Positions 12,913 to 54,529 of a stretch of 64,000 nt of DNA are shown here, in pieces. The DNA comes from Chiloscyllium plagiosum (taxonomy: Eukaryota). Position numbers and translations under genes: made by a program. Every line of letters starts with the position of its first letter. The stretch's first letter is position 1. The notes under the pieces are model-generated. The model was not told the origin of the DNA, searched no databases, and saw nothing but the letters and a program-made list of their open reading frames with translations. The stretch covers positions 105,523,024-105,587,023 of the forward strand of contig NC_057718.1 in the NCBI RefSeq assembly GCF_004010195.1, written 5' to 3'.

Positions 12913-14569
12913 TTGCTTGACTTCCTGACACTTGGTCCACTCTTAATTTAGCATCACTCATCATTTCAGACCTGGACATTAATAATTACTCTGTCCAACA
13001 TTTAAAATAAATAGTCTTCTTTGCTTTAATGAAAGGATTTAAATAAAAACACGTACCTCGTTCCACAATTAAAACATGGGTTGTTAGATAATACAAAGTG
13101 TAATCATGCAGAAGAAAGCACATCTTAAACCAAATTAATTACTAAGTAATTATCAAGAACAAAAGTAAACATAGGTTTAGGTTTAAAGAGCTGTTTAAAA
13201 AAATAAATTGATAGTGAAAGAAACTAAAATACTAACTATGGGATAACAATGGGTTATGTTGGCTATCTTTGCCCATACACTGAGCAAATGAATTAATGTT
13301 TAAAATGTTAACAAATAATAGGATCATTGTATTTTGACAGTTTTTGTCCTTTCAAACCTTTTAATCTTTTCACAGTCTTAAGTTTTCATTAACAAGAAAT
13401 TTCTAAATTATACTATTGCCTAACTGAATTCATGGCAGTATGGTCAAAGAACTGCAAGTAAAGCAAACTGTTTTGATCTAGGAAACCTTCTCTTAAGAAT
13501 GTTAATCTGGTAGATCACATGCTGGCACAACATGGCACACACAATCGCTTACTCACAATGTAACAATTAAAAGTACTGATTCACGCGAATATTTATTTCA
13601 TAGTAAGGATTTTTTACACCGTAGCAGTTTGCAGACGTAAGAACCTTTAGGAATTAAAATTCATTTTATTTTAAGTATCATTTTGAAATTACTCCCAAAA
13701 TTTAGTAAATACCATGCATCTCGAAATTTGATGACAATGCCTTCAGCATCCCTTCCACTAATCTTCTAAAATCCCTTTTCATCTGATTGTTAAAGAATGC
13801 TTGAAGCCTGACACCATGGCTAAGATGGCTACACATTTGGGGGATGGGATGACTTTTTCTTCTTATATTTTTAACTTGATTTGGAATCTGAACTGAGAGT
13901 TCAAACCAATTTTGTGCATTTTTTTCATCTTCAGTCATAAATATTGCCCGAACAAAGGTAGTTAAAAGATACACGCATGTAAATAAATATAGACACAGAA
14001 AAGAAATGTATCATATTTGAAAACTGACTTGCAGATTATCAATAGGGATCTTGTATTTTAGAAAATATAACTTTAAAATAATTCCTTACAAATTAAAGCC
14101 GGAGGCATTATAGATTTAGATTTTCAATTACTGATGTATTAAATTGTTTGATGCTTAAACTGACAGCTTATAGGAAGACTTTTAACTGATACTACAAATC
14201 TCACGACAGTGAAGCTCCAGACTTAGCGAAAAAGTGTTTGACAATCCAGTCTACAGAAACCATGCGAGGGTAGTATGTAATGATGATTTTTTTTCCTCTT
14301 TCTTGTGGATTGTGACTGGGGATAGATGAAAGATTTATTTGTTCTGAAATAGCAGGAAATCTTGATTTTCTGAAGGTATGGTACTGGCAAACACTACTTC
14401 ATTCTTGGAGCCTACTGGAATGAATCTAGCCAAAAATAAAGGATGTCTACAGAAAGTTTAAGGCAGGTCCTACTGGAAGACCAAGTGACTACAACTGCCA
14501 ACCCAGAAGAAAACTGGGCAATGCGAGGTTTTCAGTAGAATTTTGTTCAGATTTTTTAAATACAAAAAC

Positions 14570-15069
14570 NNNNNNNNNNNNNNNNNNNNNNNNNNNNNNN
14601 NNNNNNNNNNNNNNNNNNNNNNNNNNNNNNNNNNNNNNNNNNNNNNNNNNNNNNNNNNNNNNNNNNNNNNNNNNNNNNNNNNNNNNNNNNNNNNNNNNNN
14701 NNNNNNNNNNNNNNNNNNNNNNNNNNNNNNNNNNNNNNNNNNNNNNNNNNNNNNNNNNNNNNNNNNNNNNNNNNNNNNNNNNNNNNNNNNNNNNNNNNNN
14801 NNNNNNNNNNNNNNNNNNNNNNNNNNNNNNNNNNNNNNNNNNNNNNNNNNNNNNNNNNNNNNNNNNNNNNNNNNNNNNNNNNNNNNNNNNNNNNNNNNNN
14901 NNNNNNNNNNNNNNNNNNNNNNNNNNNNNNNNNNNNNNNNNNNNNNNNNNNNNNNNNNNNNNNNNNNNNNNNNNNNNNNNNNNNNNNNNNNNNNNNNNNN
15001 NNNNNNNNNNNNNNNNNNNNNNNNNNNNNNNNNNNNNNNNNNNNNNNNNNNNNNNNNNNNNNNNNNNNN
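14570..15069. other. Assembly gap (500 N)
   Basis: Run of N. Confidence 1.
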
Positions 15070-15079
15070 TTGTCGATTG

Positions 15080-17060
15080 TTAGAAAAACCCATCTGTTTC
15101 ACTAATGTCCTATAGGGAAGGAAAGTGTCATCCTTACCTCACCTGGCCTGCATGTGATTCCAGACCTACAGCAATGTGGTTGACACTTAACTGCCCTCTG
15201 GGAAATTAGTAATGGGCAATAAATGCTGGCCTAGCCAGTGACATCCGCATCCTGTCAACATAAAGTTGTTATTAGGGAAATGGGCCACGCATCAGCCATG
15301 ATCTCATTGAATGGTGGAACAGTCTTATGGGGCTGTCTGGCCTCCTCTTGTTCATATGTACATAAAGTTGATAAAGTACTAAGACCAGATGAGATGATTC
15401 AAGGATATTGAGGGCAGCAAGTGTGGAAATTGTGAACACATTGGCCAAACTTTTCCAGTCTTCGTTAGACTCAATGTTGGTGGCAGAGGACTACAAAATT
15501 TGAAACATTATGCCCTTATTCAAAAAATGGATGTAAAGATACACACCAAAACCACAGACTAGTTAGCTGTGGGGAATCTTTTTGAAACAATAATTCAGGG
15601 CTAATTCATTAGTCAAATAGACAAATATGGATTAAAGAAGGAAAGCAAGTATGCATTTAGAGTCACTGAGCTGTACAGCATGGAAACAAATCCTTCAGTC
15701 CAACTCGTCCATGCTGACCAGATATCCGAAATTAATCTAGTCCTGTTTGACAGTATTTGGCCCATATCCTGCTAAACCCTTTCAATTCATATGCCTTTTA
15801 AATGTTGTAATTGTACCAGCCTCCATCACTTCCTCTGGCAGCTCATTCTGTACACACACCACTGTCTTTTCAATCTTTCCCCTCTCACCTTAAACCTATG
15901 CCCTCTGGCTTTGGACTCCACAGTCCCAGGAAAGACCTTGGCTATTCACCCTGTCCATGCCCTTCATGATTTTACAAAACTTTATAAGGTTACCCTTCGC
16001 GCTCCGACACTCTTAGGGAAAATAGCCCAAGCATATTCAGCTCAAACCCTCCAACCCTGACAGCATCTTTGTAAACCTTTTCTGCATCCTTTCAGGTTTA
16101 ACACCATCTTTCATAAGGCAGGGAGACCACAATTTAACGTAGTATTCCAAAACTGGCCCAACCAATGTCCTGTACACCCACAACGTGACATCCCAACTCC
16201 TATACTCAAGGCACTAATCTATAAAGGCAAGGATACCAAACACCTTCTTCACTATCCTACCTACCTGTGACTCCACCTTCAAGGAGCTATGAACCTGCAC
16301 CCCGAGGTCTCTTTGTTTGGCAATACTCTCCAGACCCTACCATTAAATGTATTAGTCCTGCCCTGGTTTGCCTTACCAAAATACCACCCCTCACATTTAT
16401 CTAAATTAAACTCCATCTGTCAGTCCTTGGCCTATCTGATCAAGGTCACTGTCTGCTATACCAGCAATTTTGGTGTCATCTGCAAACTTACTAACCATTC
16501 CTCCTATATTCACATCCCAATCATTTATATAAATGACAAAACTTAGGGGACCCAGCACCGCTGGTCACAGGCCTCCAGTCCGAAAAGTAACCCTCTATAC
16601 CATCACCCTCTGTCTCCTTTACAGAAAATTATGCAGAATTAACTAAAGAGTATTTTGAAGAGGGTAATGGTATTGATTTGTTGTAGTTGAACTTCAAAAA
16701 GCTACAGTGTCCCACAAATGGTACCAGGTGTGAAGAACCTTCAGTAATGAAGAGATATTAGAGAACTTGGGATTGTTTTTCTCAGAGAACAGTAGATTTT
16801 ATTTAGGTATTCAAAATTGATAGCAAAAAGAGGAAAAAAATCTTTTCAAGCATAAGTGGCTGGAATCTGGAATGCACTCCCTGAGTGGAGTGGAGGCAGG
16901 TTTAGTCCAGGCATTTAAAAATAATTACATAATTATCTGGAAAGGAAGAATATGCATGATTACAGGGGGAAGGTGATAATAGTGCAAAGTGAGTTGTTGG
17001 ACAGCCATTGCAGGCATGATGCATCGAATTGGTTCCTTCTGGTCTGCAACAATTCTGTGA
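15080..17060. mobile_element. Cluster of LINE fragments: LINE 3' tail (about 15085-15265), old plus-strand CR1, nested minus-strand CR1 3' part (about 15660-16620)
   Basis: 15660-16000 is the reverse complement of the CR1 tail family at 29500-29790. Flanks carry decayed CR1 RT motifs. Confidence 0.8.
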
Positions 17061-28519: not shown

Positions 28520-30372
28520 TATGATAAGGGCCCATAGTGTTAGAGACAAGGTGCTAGAATGGATAGAAGCTTGGCTGTTTGGCACAAAGCAGAGAGTGGG
28601 CATAAAAGGGTCCTTCTCAGGATGGCAGCCTGTGGTGTTCTGCATGGGTCAGTGTTAGGACCACAACTTTTCACTTTATACATTAATGATCTAGATGAAG
28701 GAACTGAGGGTATTCTGGCTATGTTTGCATATGATACAAAGATAGGTAGAGGGACAGGTAGCATTGGGAAGGCAGGGAGACTGCAGAAGGATTTGGACAG
28801 GTTAGGAGAGAGGTAGACAAGCCACCTAGCGGATTCATTCCTCCCACTGACTAACCAGGTTATACCCTTTGCCTGTCTTCATCTATCCCCCATTTCACCA
28901 CCCTGCCCTCGCCATCCCCTTTATCTGCAGCTCCCCTTATATCCACCTCCAGTCCTGAAGAAACGTTACACCTGAAATGTTGACTTCTCCATCTCCTGAT
29001 GCTGCCTGGCTTGTATTGTTGTCTACCCTGGATTCCAGCCTCTGCAGAATTTTTTTGTCTCTAATGAGGTTAGGAGAATGGGCAAAGAAGTAGCAGATGG
29101 AGTACAATGTGTGAGGTCATGCACTTTAATAGAAAGAATAGAGGCATGGACTACTTTCTAAATGGGGAGAAAATTCAGAAGCCTGAAGTCTAAAGATACT
29201 TGGGAGTTCTAGTCCAGGTAAACTTGCAGGTTGAGTCAGTGGTTAGGAAGGCAAATGCAATGATGGCATTTATTTTGAGAGGACTTGATGCTGTGAAACT
29301 TGAAAGGATTCAGAAAAGATTTACAAGGATGTTGCCAGGGTTGGAGGATTTGAGCAATAGGGAGAGGTTGAATAGGCTGGGGCTGTTTTCCCTGGAGCAT
29401 TGGAGGCTGAGGGGTGACCTTATAGAGGTTTATCAAATCATGAAGGGCTTGGATAGGATAAATAGACAAAGTCTTTTCCCTGAGGTGGGGGAGTTTAGAA
29501 ATAGAGGACATAAGTTTAGGGTGAGAGGGGAAAGATGTAAAAAAGACCTAAGGGGCAACTTTTTCACGCAGAGGACGGTGCGTGTATGGAATGTGCTGCC
29601 AGAGGAAGTGATGGAGACTGGTACAATTGCAACATTTAAAAGGCATCTGGATGGGTATATGAATAGGAAGGGTTTGGAGGGATATGGGCCAAGTGCTGGC
29701 AGGTGGGACAAGATTGGGTTGGGATATCTGGTTGGCATGGACAAGTTGGACCGGAGGGCCTGTTTCTGTGCTGTACATCTCTATGACTCTATAAAAGCAG
29801 AGATGTACTTCTGAGGGTCTATAAGACCACATTTGGAGTACAGTGTGTGGTTTTGGGCCCCATACCTCAGGAAGGATGTACTGGCCCTGCAGTGGGTTCA
29901 GAGGAGTTTCACGAGAATGGTCCCAGGAATGAAAAGCTTAACATATGAGGAACATTTAAGGACTCCATCTATACTCGATGGAACTTTGAAGGATGATGGG
30001 GGGGGGGGGAATCTAACTGAAACTTAAAGAATAATGAATAGCCTGGATAGAGTGAATGTTGGAAAGATGCTTCCATTAGTAAGAGAGACGAAGACCTGAA
30101 GGCTCAGCCTTAGAGTAAAAGGACGACCTTTTAGAATGGAGATAAGGAGAAATGTCTTCACCAGAGAGTGGTGAATCTATGGAATTCAATGCCACAGAAG
30201 GTTGTGGAAGCCAGGGTTGTTGAGTATATTTAAGACAGAGATAGATAAGGGGATCAAGGGTCACTGGGAGAAAGCAGGAGAATGAGGTTGAGAAATTTAT
30301 CAGCCATGATCGAATAGCGGAGCAGAGTCAATAGGCTAAATGGCCTAATTTCTGCACCTGTGTTTTATGGTC
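28520..30372 (+). mobile_element. CR1 RT/3' region with nested pLTR (28810-29066) and nested second CR1 3' end (about 29290-29790)
   Basis: GSVLGPQLFTLYINDLDEG...FAYDTK RT motif. Nested CR1 ends in ctatgactctat. pLTR flanked by AGGTTAGGAGA at 28799-28809 and 29067-29077. Confidence 0.9.
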
Positions 30373-47934: not shown

Positions 47935-49945
47935 CTAAGACCATAAGACATAGGAGCGGGAGTAAGGTCATTTGGCCCACTCCGCTACTCTATCATAGCT
48001 GATGGGCATTTCAACACCACTTACCCGCACTCTTCCCGTAGCCCTTAATTCCTTGCGAGTTCAAAAATTTATCAATCTCTGCCTTAAAGACATTTAACAT
48101 CTCGGCCTCCACTGCGCTCCGTGGCAATGAATTATACAGGCTCACCACTCTCTGGCTGAAGAAATGTCTAATTTCCATTCTAAAAGTTGACCCCCTCTAA
48201 TTCTAAGGCTGTGTCCACGGGTCCTAGTCTCCCCGCCTAACGAAAACAATTTCCCAGCGTCCACCCTTTCCAAGCCATGAATTACCTTGTAAGTTTCTAT
48301 GAGGTCTCCCCTCAACCTTCTAAACTCTAATGAATACAATCCCAGGATCCTCAGTTGCTCATCATACATTAGGCCTACCATTCCAGGGATCATCCGTGTG
48401 AATCTCTACTGGACACACTCCAGTGCCAGTATGTCCTTCCTGAGGTGTGGGACCCAAAACTGGACACAGTATTCTAAATGGGGCCTAACTAGAGCTTTAT
48501 AAAGTCTCAGTAGCACATTGCTGCTTTTATATTCCAACCCTCTTGAGACAAATGACATCATTACATTTGCTTTCTTAACCACAGATTTAACCTGCAAGTC
48601 AACCTTTAGAGAATCCTGGACGAGCACTCCCAGATCCCTTTGTACTTTGGCTTTATGAATTTTCTCACCGTTTAGAAAATAGTCAATGCCTGTATTCTTT
48701 TTTCCAAAGTGCAAGACCTCGCATTTGCTCACGTTAAATTTCATCAGCCATTTCCTGGACCACTCTCCTAAACTGTCTAAATCTGTCTGCATCCTCCCCA
48801 CCACCTCAGTATTACCTGCCTGTCCACCTAACTTCGTATCATCGGCAAACTTCGCCAGAATGCCCCCAGTCCCTTCATCCAGATCATTAATTATATAAAG
48901 TGAATAGCTGCAGCCCCAACACTGAACCCTGCGGGACATCACTTGTCACCGACTGCCATTCCAAAAAAGAACCTTTTATCTCAACTCTCTGCTTTCTGTC
49001 AGACAGCCAATCCTCAATCCATGCCAGCAGCTCACCTCAAACACCACGGGCCCTCACCTTAGTCAGCAGCCTCCCGCGAGGCACCATATCAAAGGCCTTT
49101 TGGAAGTCTAGATAGGTAACATCCACTGGGTTTCCCTGGTCTAACTTACTTGTTACCTCTTCAAAGAATTCTAACAGGTTTGTCAGGCACGACCTCCCCT
49201 TACTAAATCCATGCTGACTTGTTCTAGTTCGACCCTGCACTTCCAAGAATTTAGAAATCTCATCCTTAATGATGGATTCTAGAATTTTACCTACAATCGA
49301 GATTAGGCTAATTGGCCTATAATTTTCCATCTTTTGTCTTGATTGCAGCAGCGATTTTTCAATCATCTGGGACTTTCCCTGACTCCAGTGATTTTTGAAA
49401 GATCAAAACCAACGCCTCCGCTATTTCCTCAGCCACCTCTCTCAGAACTCTAGAACGTAGCCCTTCGGGGCCAGAAGATTTATCAATTTTTAGACCTTTT
49501 AGCTTTTCTAGCACTTTCTCTTTTGTAATGTCTACCATACTCAACTCTGCCCCCGACTCTCCTTAATTGTTGGGATATTACTCATGTCTTCCACTGTGAA
49601 GACTGACACAAAGTACTTATTAAGTTCTTCAGCTATTTCCTTATCTCCCAGCATAGCCTTTCTACATCAAATTGGAGCGCCTGCTTCCTTGTGGGCTCCA
49701 TCACAAGATGTTCCAAAAAGCCATCCTATAAGCATTCCATGAATTTCCTTTCTTTGGATCCACCGGCAATATTATTCACCCGATCTATTTGCATACTGAA
49801 GTCCCCCATGATCACCGTGACCTTGCCTTTCTGACATGCCCTATTTATTTCCTGGTACATCTTGCGCCCCAGGTCCTGGTCACTGTTGGGAGGTCTGTAC
49901 ATAACTCCCATTATAGTTTTTTTTTGCCTTTGGGGTTCCTCAACT
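47935..49945 (-). mobile_element. CR1 LINE ORF2, fragmented
   Basis: NYRPISLISIVGKILESIIKD, YLDFQKAFDMVP, INDLDEGTGGILAKFADDTK, LYKALVRPHLEYCVQFW, and endonuclease YRPPN...MGDF. Confidence 0.95.
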
Positions 49946-50310
49946 CTATTTGCTAGAAGTGACATACGGTCATGCATAGCGGCCAGTTTTCTGGAAACTA
50001 AAAGAATATGTTCACCCTTTTTTCTGAATTATCGTGGTACATGTGATCCTACAGTTCCCTGTTGTTTTCTCATGGCAACATCTCAGCCAGAGTCTGGGCG
50101 TGAATATTTTGTGACACTACATGAGCTCAAGTCAAACTGTGACAAATTATCAGTATGCCTGACAAAGGGACCAGAAGAGACATACTTATCATCTCAGTTC
50201 TCAATAAAGATTAGTTTTCCAGTTTAATCATCTTTCTACACTTATCCAAACTTCCCTGTAACATACAAACTTCTTCAGAGACAGAAAAAATCTGCAGATG
50301 CTGGAATCTA

Positions 50311-50448
50311 CCCATAAGCAAATATACATGCATTGTAGCCTTCAAAGACATCTTTAAGGACATCAGTCCCAAGGTCCTTGAAAACCCTTTCCTGGGATGC
50401 AAATTTAGGACTCCTACAATCAGCAGAACAGTAAGAATAGTCAAAGGT
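50311..50448 (-). pseudogene. Kinesin-3 motor-domain fragment (KIF16B-like), probable processed mRNA fragment embedded in a Penelope pLTR
   Basis: 46 open codons: TFDYSYCSADCRSPKFASQERVFKDLGTDVLKDVFEGYNACIFAYG, then TAG where the Q of the kinesin P-loop motif (GYN.CIFAYGQTGSGKS) is expected. pLTR sequence on both sides. Confidence 0.88.
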
Positions 50449-50484
50449 AGGAAGCTGGAGGAACAGAGCATGTCAGGCAGCATC

Positions 50485-50686
50485 ATAGAGTCATAGAGAT
50501 GTACAACATGGAAACAGACCCTTTCGGTCCAACCCGTCCATGCCGACCAGGTATCCTAACCCAATTTAGTCCCATCTGCAAGCATCTGGCCCATATCTCT
50601 CCAAACCCTTCCTATTCATATATCCATCCAAATGCCTCTTAAATGTTGCAATTTTACCAGCCTCTGCCACTTCCTCTGGCAGCGCA
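50485..50686 (-). mobile_element. CR1 3' end fragment
   Basis: NALPEEVAEAGKIATFKRHLDGYMNRKG; catagagtcatagag tail on the plus strand. Confidence 0.9.
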
Positions 50687-50772
50687 TTGTTTTGGAACTT
50701 CGGGAAAAAAAGTCGAAACAACAGCAGTTTTAAAAGGGAGAAGAACAGACAAAGGAAGCACATGGTGAGGTC

Positions 50773-51640
50773 ATTGCAAGAGAGAGAAAGAGAAAAAAAG
50801 AGAGAGAGAGAACCTGCACAGTTACTGCCTTTGCTGTTTGAATTCATGTATCGTTGGACATTGAAGTGCATCTGGGAAAATTAACAAACAGTGAAATTCA
50901 CAACTGATCTTGGAGGAACTGTTGGGCGAAGTTCACAGCACAGAATCACCAGCACCATTCTAATCTAGACAGAATCAGATAAGTTAATCGTTGTTTTAAG
51001 TGTGGCCTGCAGAGAATCTGCAGTAGTGTGTAGAGTGGGTTCTTTCTTGACTATATGTTTTTGGAGATTTGTCTCTTGATTAAAGCATCAGGAGGTGGAG
51101 AAGGAGTAATGGAAGAGAGGGGGAAGGACTGGAAAAGGAGTCCGGGGACTGAAAGGGAGATTTTTTGAAATTGGAGAACTCAGTGTTGAGTCCACCAGGC
51201 TGTAGACTGCCCCAGACGATGATGAGGTGTTGTTCCTCCAATTTTCAGTCTGTTTTGCAGTGGTATTGGAGGAGGCCAAGGATGGTCATGTTAGAAAGGG
51301 AGTGGGAAGGGGAATTAAAATGAGATGCTTTAATCAAGAGACAAATCTCCAAAAACATATAGTCAAGAAAGAACCCACTCTACACACTACTGCAGATTCT
51401 CTGCAGGCCACACTTAAAACAACGATTAACTTATCTGATTCTGTCTAGATTAGAATGGTGCTGGTGATTCTGTGCTGTGAACTTCGCCCAACAGTTCCTC
51501 CAAGATCAGTTGTGAATTTCACTGTTTGTTAATTTTCCCAGATGCACTTCAATGTCCAACGATACATGAATTCAAACAGCAAAGGCAGTAACTGTGCAGG
51601 TTCTCTCTCTCTCTTTTTTTCTCTTTCTCTCTCTTGCAAT
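50773..51640. repeat. Perfect 317-bp inverted repeat (50773-51089 / 51324-51640) with a 234-bp Penelope-derived spacer
   Basis: The arms read as exact reverse complements, including the (GA)n run. The ORF track also shows identical peptides on opposite strands (50566-50871 minus, 51542-51727 plus). Confidence 0.95.
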
Positions 51641-52007
51641 TCCCCCACTTATCTGCAGCTCCCCTTACACCCACCCCCAGTCCTGAAGAAGGGTTACACC
51701 CACAACGTTGCCCTCTCCACCTCCTGATACTACCTGGCTTGCTGTGTTCTTCCAACCTCCTATTGTCTACACAAACTTCTTCAGCTGAGATGTTAAGATA
51801 TTCAAACCATTGTTCATTGTTGTAAAGAAGGCATTGTGGGTGTACCTATGCCAAATGAACTGCAGTAATTCAAGAAGGCAGCTCATTGTCACTTTTTCAA
51901 GGACAACTAGATATCGGTAATAATTGTTAGCCCAGCCAGTGACTTCCACATCCCCTGATTAAATTAGAAACCCTCATTTTGACCAGTTTAACCTGAGAAT
52001 TCAAATA

Positions 52008-52969: not shown

Positions 52970-53299
52970 CTGAAATGCTGTAAGGCCAACTGTTGTTGGA
53001 AACCAGTTCTGCAGGTCTCTGCCCTAATGTATTTACAAGCTCAGCTCAGTTTTATTCATACACACAACAAATGGCTATTGAAGGATTTACTGCAGACTGC
53101 CAGTCAAAAGTTTAAGGTTTTTTAAAAAAATTACCTTAAAGCAGAGCTGGAAGTAATGCTCTAAAGGTCATAAACATTTGGGTAAGAATTCAAGAACACT
53201 GTTATCCCAATCCCTGATTCCCGCCTACGTGCCAAATCCAAACACCCTGTTCTTTGGTTGACGTCTAAACTAACCCAATCCAGTGCAGCTCACAGCAAT

Positions 53300-54045
53300 A
53301 GAATGAAACAGAGAATATGAGAGAGAGAAAGAGAAAAAACACTGGGGGGCAGAGGGACAGAACATGAGAGAGATTGGAAGAACATGAGTGAGAGAGAGGG
53401 AGAGGACGAACACGATTGGGGGGAGGATGAACACAAGAGGGTCAGGGAGAGACTACAGGAGTGGGGGTGTGGAAACACAACACAGAAGGGGAAAAANNNN
53501 NNNNNNNNNNNNNNNNNNNNNNNNNNNNNNNNNNNNNNNNNNNNNNNNNNNNNNNNNNNNNNNNNNNNNNNNNNNNNNNNNNNNNNNNNNNNNNNNNNGG
53601 GAGGCAGGGACCACGAGAGAGAGAGAGAGAGAAAACAGGAAAGAGGGGGAGGGAGGGAACATGAGAGAGAGAGGGGAGGGAACAGGAAAGAGAGAGGGCG
53701 TGGGAACTCGAGAGGGAGCGAACACCAGAGAGGGGGAGGGAACACAAGAGAGAGGGAGGGAGGGTACAAGAGAGAGAGAGAGAGTGAGAGTGAGAGCATG
53801 TGTGTGGGGGGGGTAATAGACTGAAAGGAAACACAAGAGAGGACGTGCGTGAAAGAACGTGTGAAAGAGAGAACAGAGACAATGAGAACATGACATATAA
53901 TACAACAGAGAGAACATGACAGCAAGAATTATAACATGAGAGAGATAGAAAGGAAATGAGAATGACAGAGAGGCCACAAAATATAAGAAAGAAAGAAACA
54001 GTGATTGAAAGAGAAAAATAGAAAAGAAGTAAAAGGGAGCGCAAG
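53300..54045. repeat. GA-rich low-complexity tract containing an assembly gap (N at 53497-53598)
   Basis: Degenerate (GA)n/GGGAAC units. Confidence 0.9.
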
Positions 54046-54529
54046 GAAGAGACTTGTATTTATTGGCACTTTTTATAAACTTTGGCATCCTACAGTTAAT
54101 TAAATATTTTTATGAAGTGTGTTCACCATTATTATGTAGGAAACCTGACAACCAAATGGCACAGAGCAAGCTCCTACAAACAACAAGATAATGATCAGAT
54201 CGTCTGCTTTAGTGATGACTGTTATCATATTAAAGCCAATAGATTCATTTTGCTGGGCTCTGCAGCCATTAGATATCCGCAACATATTTCAAGTCCAATG
54301 AAATGTCTAGAGCAATGATACAGCTAACATCAAACAATGCAAAGGTCTGCTTGCTTTTTTATTCCAAACATACATTGTAGTGTAAACTGTGGAATATTTA
54401 ATATCATTTAATGGAAGTCTGTGTTTATGTTTTCTGAGTTAGTAACCTGTGGATTTTCTGTGTCTTTGAATTTAATAATTAATTCGCAGTATTTTTGTAG
54501 CCGTGGTGAATTCTTTCAAATCTATATTA

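Follow-up and report, generated by a model that had tools for sequence, protein, structure and literature searches.

The window analysed here is a stretch of 64,000 nucleotides from the shark Chiloscyllium plagiosum (contig NC_057718.1), within which positions 50277-51770 form one insertion unit of a Penelope-like element, limited by the end of a tailed arm at 50277 and that of an inverted, tail-less arm at 51770 and bordered on both sides by a 14-bp direct repeat. These target-site duplications, the same 14-mer on the plus strand, lie at 50265-50278, where 2 nt overlap the element end, and at 51771-51784. The tailed arm, a pseudo-LTR (pLTR) on the minus strand, consists of a tail (50277-50308) that begins at the family's proximal end site and stops at its distal one (reference ~65-95), a body downstream of the hammerhead (50449-50485, reference ~13-49, with 5/36 mismatches to the family majority) and, past a nested insertion, an upstream continuation of the same arm (51084-51103, reference 0-19, 0/19 mismatches). 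By the usual hammerhead rules, this upstream part starts, at 51103, ~2 nt past the predicted cut site. Between body and tail, ~32 nt from the tailed end and on the sense strand of the element, lies a 138-nt fragment of kinesin sequence (50311-50448, minus strand), which is the subject of this analysis. The inverted arm (51649-51770, plus strand, 9/118 mismatches) ends at reference 59, the position of the junction with the fragment; its last part, 51726-51770, had been taken in the initial annotation for a related pLTR copy and proves to belong to this same insertion. The putative minimal hammerhead is decayed in the inverted arm and absent from the tailed one. Elsewhere in the window, 28921-29062 is a further tailed member of the family, internally deleted and nested in another repeat.

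The interior of the unit is rearranged. Positions 50486-51083 (minus strand), with TGATGCT on both sides, represent a nested and likely later insertion into the same pLTR, in which the 3′ end of one repeat (50486-50688), probably of CR1 type, is joined to 400 nt from the interior of a different repeat (50684-51083); the name L1-type 5′ UTR used in annotating 50486-51083 is likewise provisional. A reading of this segment as a full SINE was rejected, the 400-nt part being an internal piece of a longer repeat, and the CR1-type fusion under one 7-bp duplication is possibly a second template-switch chimera at the locus. Next to the arm, 51104-51324 (minus strand) holds the broken C-terminal end of a Penelope GIY-YIG endonuclease, of doubtful origin: ~150 nt of it (51104-51255) are 99% identical to a copy on contig C20 (L005, G000:C20:11642696-11642913), with private mutations in common, and the adjoining 75 nt are ~15% different, a likeness due to ectopic conversion or to a chimeric gap fill. 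The following 51324-51648 (plus strand) is a 325-nt inverted copy of 50765-51089, and this 99% inverted repeat within an element diverged by ~8% could stem from recent conversion, fold-back copying or assembly fill. Both this copy and the endonuclease remnant are either far younger than the element or assembly fill. Double-armed Penelope structures are described, in the passages cited, as troublesome for short-read assemblies (PMC8557442). No listed contig of the public runs spans 51104-51648, and the junctions of the kinesin insert lie outside that segment.

A spliced fragment of KIF16B

Re-reading and translation of 50311-50448 on the minus strand upheld the sequence and the 46-residue kinesin peptide that the initial annotation had described. 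Compared with PDB, the peptide matches kinesin-3 motors, as predicted (best E 3.6e-10), and it scores 29.1 bits against the Pfam Kinesin model, slightly below the 29.3 cut-off. Its homologues number 269; among the best 120 of these the named ones are nearly all KIF16B, the assignment originally proposed, and the top 19 named ones, at 78-91% identity, come from sharks and rays. A DNA search of the shark's own genome with the 138 nt gave three matches from three candidates, namely the window and two pieces of a single gene on contig C9, one covering query positions 1-65 at 92% identity and the other 63-138 at 93%. This parent KIF16B gene lies intact on the same contig as the window, 3.7 Mb away; in the 100 kb examined, which cover the motor exons, it is a multi-exon kinesin gene with the motor motifs in order across ~30 kb and exons that encode an intact motor. 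An exon of 114 nt and one of 117 nt are separated in it by a 3,669-nt GT-AG intron (donor AAAGG/GTATG, acceptor TTATAG/GTTTTC). The 114-nt exon ends in SQER codons with the intron directly after them, exactly where the initial annotation had placed a KIF16B intron, following an SQEx codon.

The insert joins these two exons precisely, as had been conjectured: its upstream part (50448-50386, minus strand) is the final 63 nt of the first and its downstream part (50385-50311, minus strand) the initial 75 nt of the second, so that the boundary between 50386 and 50385 matches the exact spliced junction. The exact removal of the intron implies an RNA template, and comparison with the parent locus confirms both the identity of the insert as KIF16B and its derivation from a spliced cellular mRNA, as first suggested. 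It is an internal fragment, since it does not reach the mRNA 3′ end, has no poly(A) and shows no target duplication at its own junctions; for these reasons a LINE-1-type processed pseudogene, or class 1 TSIP, was rejected. Also rejected was a genuine exon of a second kinesin gene, in view of the missing splice sites at the ends, an immediate stop, a 1-nt deletion in a second organism and the repeat flanks.

Insert and parent differ at 10/138 positions, five of the differences being nonsynonymous and five synonymous, which is compatible with neutral decay together with drift in the parent; the insert is a dead fragment with no sign of function. In a single-cell RNA run sampled at ~2%, five reads were obtained in total and none fell on the insert, a count that says nothing either way on expression. 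One public run, of unrecorded kind, yielded a 377-nt contig with 131 nt of the insert stretch, ungapped and with 10 differences, of which the seven listed are the parent's letters; this contig is most likely parent mRNA.

The chimera itself was found once. A second copy was sought, as was any other intron-less copy of KIF16B, and neither appeared in the genome DNA search (3/3 candidates) or in the protein search (20 matches of 40 scored), where the second exon as query was 100% identical to the parent, 77% to the window copy (over 30 residues) and no more than 74% to other kinesins. With no second copy, the chimera has evidently been neither mobilised nor amplified; the host-gene capture first envisaged holds as a one-off event and fails as a mobilised chimera. 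Its junctions are independently supported. From organism A, a 542-nt contig without a single difference crosses both the right junction and the exon junction, the left one being bridged by a 95-nt contig of the same sample (X1 and X2 are one sample, possibly the source of the assembly); a second study (X8) gave 543 nt with one difference. From organism B, one 610-nt contig (X9) covers 49902-50513 and with it the two junctions as well as the adjoining repeat end, which settles in the affirmative the question of a single sequence crossing the two, and another study (X14) gave 528 nt with 22 differences. Within the insert, organism B lacks 1 nt, at 50394. Organisms A and B, which diverge by ~4%, thus both carry the insert, and the bridging contigs place the chimera before the A/B split and refute an assembly artefact as the source of its junctions. 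That the insert is a DNA-level copy of an older processed KIF16B pseudogene, or an artefact, is accordingly very improbable: the rearranged or mis-filled look of 51104-51648 speaks for it, and the searches that found no other intron-less copy and the contigs that bridge the junctions in two organisms speak against it.

The host element and its family

Longer copies of the family display, on reading by eye, RT motifs, a C-x4-C-xx-C linker and a GIY-YIG endonuclease, which substantiates the Penelope-like host named at the outset. RT-type and GIY-YIG-type motifs are visible by eye in the broken translations of four copies (L027, L103, L093 and L101); the window holds only the C-terminal end. The linker of L027 and L101 has the form CX2-5CxxC, which between RT and endonuclease (EN) is cited as a mark of Neptune/Nematis (PMC8557442). 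By this linker criterion the host is an EN+ Penelope-like element of Neptune/Nematis type, a designation that does not tell the two clades apart. Pfam gave no match in the 22 long frames scanned of the 56 in the window, where 14430-15138 and 53290-54109, with long open frames in several phases and no Pfam match, are probably low-complexity or tandem repeats.

The pLTR of EN+ Penelope-like elements is described as having an inverted, 5′-truncated arm and a 30-40-nt tail at one end (PMC8557442), and the tail of an anole Penelope-like element is bounded by two internal RT start sites, shown in vitro (PMC11167929). In the shark family, two exact anchors at their normal spacing recover 960 copies, and the 27 copies compared lie ~8% from the column majority. 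Arm ends are bimodal: among 41 arms sampled without regard to where they stop, 28 terminate at reference 50-68 (21 of them at 58-66), nine at 80 or beyond and four elsewhere. An inverted arm lies upstream in 14 of the 30 tailed copies sampled, mostly ending at 58-66, and several have 9-16-bp target duplications. By analogy with the anole element, the ends of the shark copies would correspond to a proximal and a distal RT start site. The hammerhead core and two helices can be recognised in the fold of family copies, and Rfam returned no hammerhead match in three loci. The likeness to the cited accounts (Frangieh et al., 2024, PMC11167929; Craig et al., 2021, PMC8557442) covers the bimodal ends ~32 nt apart, the tail at one end, the inverted arm and, upstream, a putative minimal hammerhead, whereas the anole element belongs to the Poseidon clade and the shark family has a Neptune/Nematis-type linker.

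A search pattern for interrupted copies matched 30 times, at 27 loci, against 960 intact copies. None of the 30, judged by BLAST against the fetched loci and by eye, contains an evident host exon; what they contain is reiterated pLTR sequence, nested repeats and duplications or inversions of local origin. With a looser pattern there were 56 matches, and the eight new ones chosen from them by eye also lacked an evident host exon. Such exact-match patterns catch, by calculation, ~6% of copies at 8% divergence. Ten loci (L060, L061, L064, L067, L070, L072, L074, L080, L085 and L113) carry 2-6 tandem pLTR units of 49 nt per copy, joined from reference 56 to 8, which represent a subfamily or repeated re-initiation. 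At nine loci these reiterations re-enter at the proximal site; they were not counted as support for template jumping, as several share variants and may be one subfamily. In another copy (L111, ~968-1009 in element orientation) 41 nt matching no fetched locus lie between inverted arms, within a 16-bp target duplication.

One interrupted copy, L118 (G000:C33:35728006-35728075), has at the proximal site of its tailed arm 23 nt that repeat the opposite flank perfectly in inverted orientation, and its two arms are identical over ~48 nt and differ elsewhere. The idea of a switch during insertion was dropped in favour of a later event because of these ~48 nt, which point to DNA-level change with the look of hairpin-driven template switching. 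L118 shows that post-insertion events are drawn to the proximal site, where the inverted repeat has its outer edge as well.

Junctions, age and route of capture

The insert interrupts the arm at reference 62-66 (or 49-66), the main end site of the family. At the right junction (50307-50310, minus strand) 2-4 nt (GA/AGA) are common to the parent mRNA and the pLTR, a parental CAG being TAG here, and the pLTR resumes at reference 64-66. The left junction (50443-50450, minus strand) admits two readings of equal standing: either TACCT, 5 nt, is common at reference 62 and a separate 8-nt deletion lies just upstream, which accounts for one of the parent differences too, or a single letter is common at reference 49 and 14 nt were lost. 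Microhomology, surmised from the start, is thus present at both junctions, with 2-4 nt at the right and 5 (or 1) nt at the left; in random junction pairs at least 5 nt occur by chance in 0.6% and at least 2 nt in 16%. The claim that the flanks are consecutive parts of one pLTR is not quite right, as ~14 nt are missing at the left junction or, on the other reading, there is the 8-nt deletion and 1-2 nt more.

As for age, the element pieces at the locus carry 15 differences in 200 positions (7.5%) and the two pLTR arms of the unit differ from each other at 9/49. The total divergence of the insert is 10/138 (7.2%; 95% interval 3.5-12.9%), part of which may have arisen on the parent's side. Amino-acid-changing differences alone number 4-5 in ~100 sites, or 3.7-5.1% (interval about 1-12%), and they yield a likelihood ratio of 0.4-0.8 for the same age versus any later time. 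The age of the insert does not separate capture during insertion from later repair.

The best reading, with about an even chance of being right, is that the insert was captured during Penelope insertion, through a double template switch of the element RT. Reverse transcription would have begun from the nicked target at the distal start site and run through the ~32-nt tail to the proximal start site; there the enzyme would have jumped onto KIF16B mRNA through the 2-4 nt pairing, copied 138 nt of it across the exon junction and re-primed on the element RNA at the proximal site; priming of the opposite DNA end at the proximal site would have given the inverted arm, and the CR1-type insertion and the further rearrangements likely came later. 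The double switch is favoured by the position of the insert at the main end site, its sense orientation, its similar total age and the single target duplication. A separate target-primed event is made less likely by the lack of both poly(A) and a duplication at the insert itself. Arguments on the other side are the anatomy of the insert (truncated at both ends, spliced, without poly(A), with short microhomologies), which is the published signature of cDNA capture at DNA breaks, the later event at this site in L118, the lack of an evident host exon in the other interrupted copies judged (30 matches and eight from the looser pattern), nonsynonymous differences that lean slightly younger than the element, the extra 8-nt deletion demanded by the 5-nt left microhomology, and the 99% inverted duplication that marks the locus as rearranged or mis-filled. 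In the literature searched, no report was found of a Penelope enzyme jumping onto a cellular mRNA, nor do the covered parts of the anole study (PMC11167929) contain a template jump onto cellular RNA. The more general proposition, that a Penelope RT is able to quit its own RNA at the proximal start site, reverse-transcribe a spliced cellular mRNA in sense and come back, we hold to be just short of evenly balanced.

A later repair is a serious possibility, if a somewhat less probable one: an existing Penelope copy would have broken near the base of its inverted repeat and been patched with KIF16B cDNA made by any RT, the element providing only the site. Such RT-product-mediated repair, or class 2 templated sequence insertion, is a documented process (PMC4516963, PMC5110952), with published patterns, among them the "double microhomology" of RMDR and those of class 2 TSIP, that the junctions here match in the accounts cited. 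Resection would be in keeping with the up to 14 nt missing at the left junction, the nonsynonymous differences tend towards a younger age, L118 has a later event at the same position, and other repeats insert into these pLTRs too. Yet the break would have had to hit a zone of 9-19 nt in at least 200 nt of element sequence, unless breaks at the hairpin base are favoured, the sense orientation would be a matter of chance (1 in 2), the total divergence of the insert equals that of the element, and the insert was already present in organism B. Of the two routes first proposed, template switching or RNA-templated repair, the RNA template stands and the choice between them leans only slightly to the former.

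Re-cutting in trans, in which an active Penelope protein nicked the pLTR near its tail and primed on KIF16B mRNA, with host repair sealing the other end, is unlikely. It would explain the position, since nicking of own pLTRs has been proposed, with tail-dependent cleavage by the D. virilis endonuclease cited in support (PMC11167929), but it leaves the orientation unexplained, and family insertions often have 9-16-bp duplications, of which there are none around the insert.

Known capture systems and significance of the insert

Penelope-mediated mobilisation of host genes is on record for Adineta vaga, where, in the passages cited, the cargo keeps its introns and sits between whole pLTRs, an antisense template is proposed, and non-coding sequences are said to have been captured between solo pLTRs as well (Arkhipova, Yushenova and Rodriguez, 2013, PMC3846280). 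In both cases host sequence sits within an EN+ Penelope unit that combines direct and inverted pLTRs with a target duplication; the KIF16B cargo differs in being spliced, sense and only 138 nt long and in splitting one pLTR between body and tail, and for this reason an A. vaga-type mobilised gene was rejected. In mouse zygotes, repair of double-strand breaks by RT products is described with cDNA capture (Ono et al., 2015, PMC4516963), and class 2 templated sequence insertions have been reported (Onozawa and Aplan, 2016, PMC5110952). The insert resembles what these accounts present as an internal spliced mRNA fragment, single-copy, with truncated ends, no poly(A) and short microhomologies; spliced internal sequence, microhomology or microdeletion, and the lack of a duplication were all found here. 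Those events, as presented there, occurred at induced or random breaks in mammals, whereas the insert occupies, in sense, the main end site of a Penelope arm and is of about the element's age.

Chimeras that arise by LINE-1 template switching, such as U6-L1, usually involve a single switch at the 5′ end by a poly(A)-primed enzyme. They have in common with the KIF16B insert a single insertion event, reverse transcription between element RNA and cellular RNA, and one target duplication, but here the enzyme would leave and return, at a point ~32 nt from the primed end. The insert works like RT-mediated capture and is not a LINE-1-type processed pseudogene, an A. vaga-type gene or an amplified chimera. 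Penelope host-gene mobilisation with introns is already in print (PMC3846280, as far as the cited passages go), and a spliced cargo within a pLTR is apparently unreported: no report of spliced mRNA inside a pLTR was found in the open-access literature searched.

Open questions for Penelope-like elements are whether the template is sense or antisense, what role the two start sites play and why introns are retained. If the double switch is real, this fossil would testify to the use, in vivo, of sense-strand templates and to template jumping at the start sites, and would make Penelope a source of intron-less gene fragments in sharks, besides intron-keeping copies. Should later repair be the true course, the locus would record a clean, old and fixed germline case of cDNA-patched break repair in cartilaginous fish. 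The value of the insert lies in the testable clue that it offers to the use of start sites by Penelope RT, with many thousand tailed copies available for survey.
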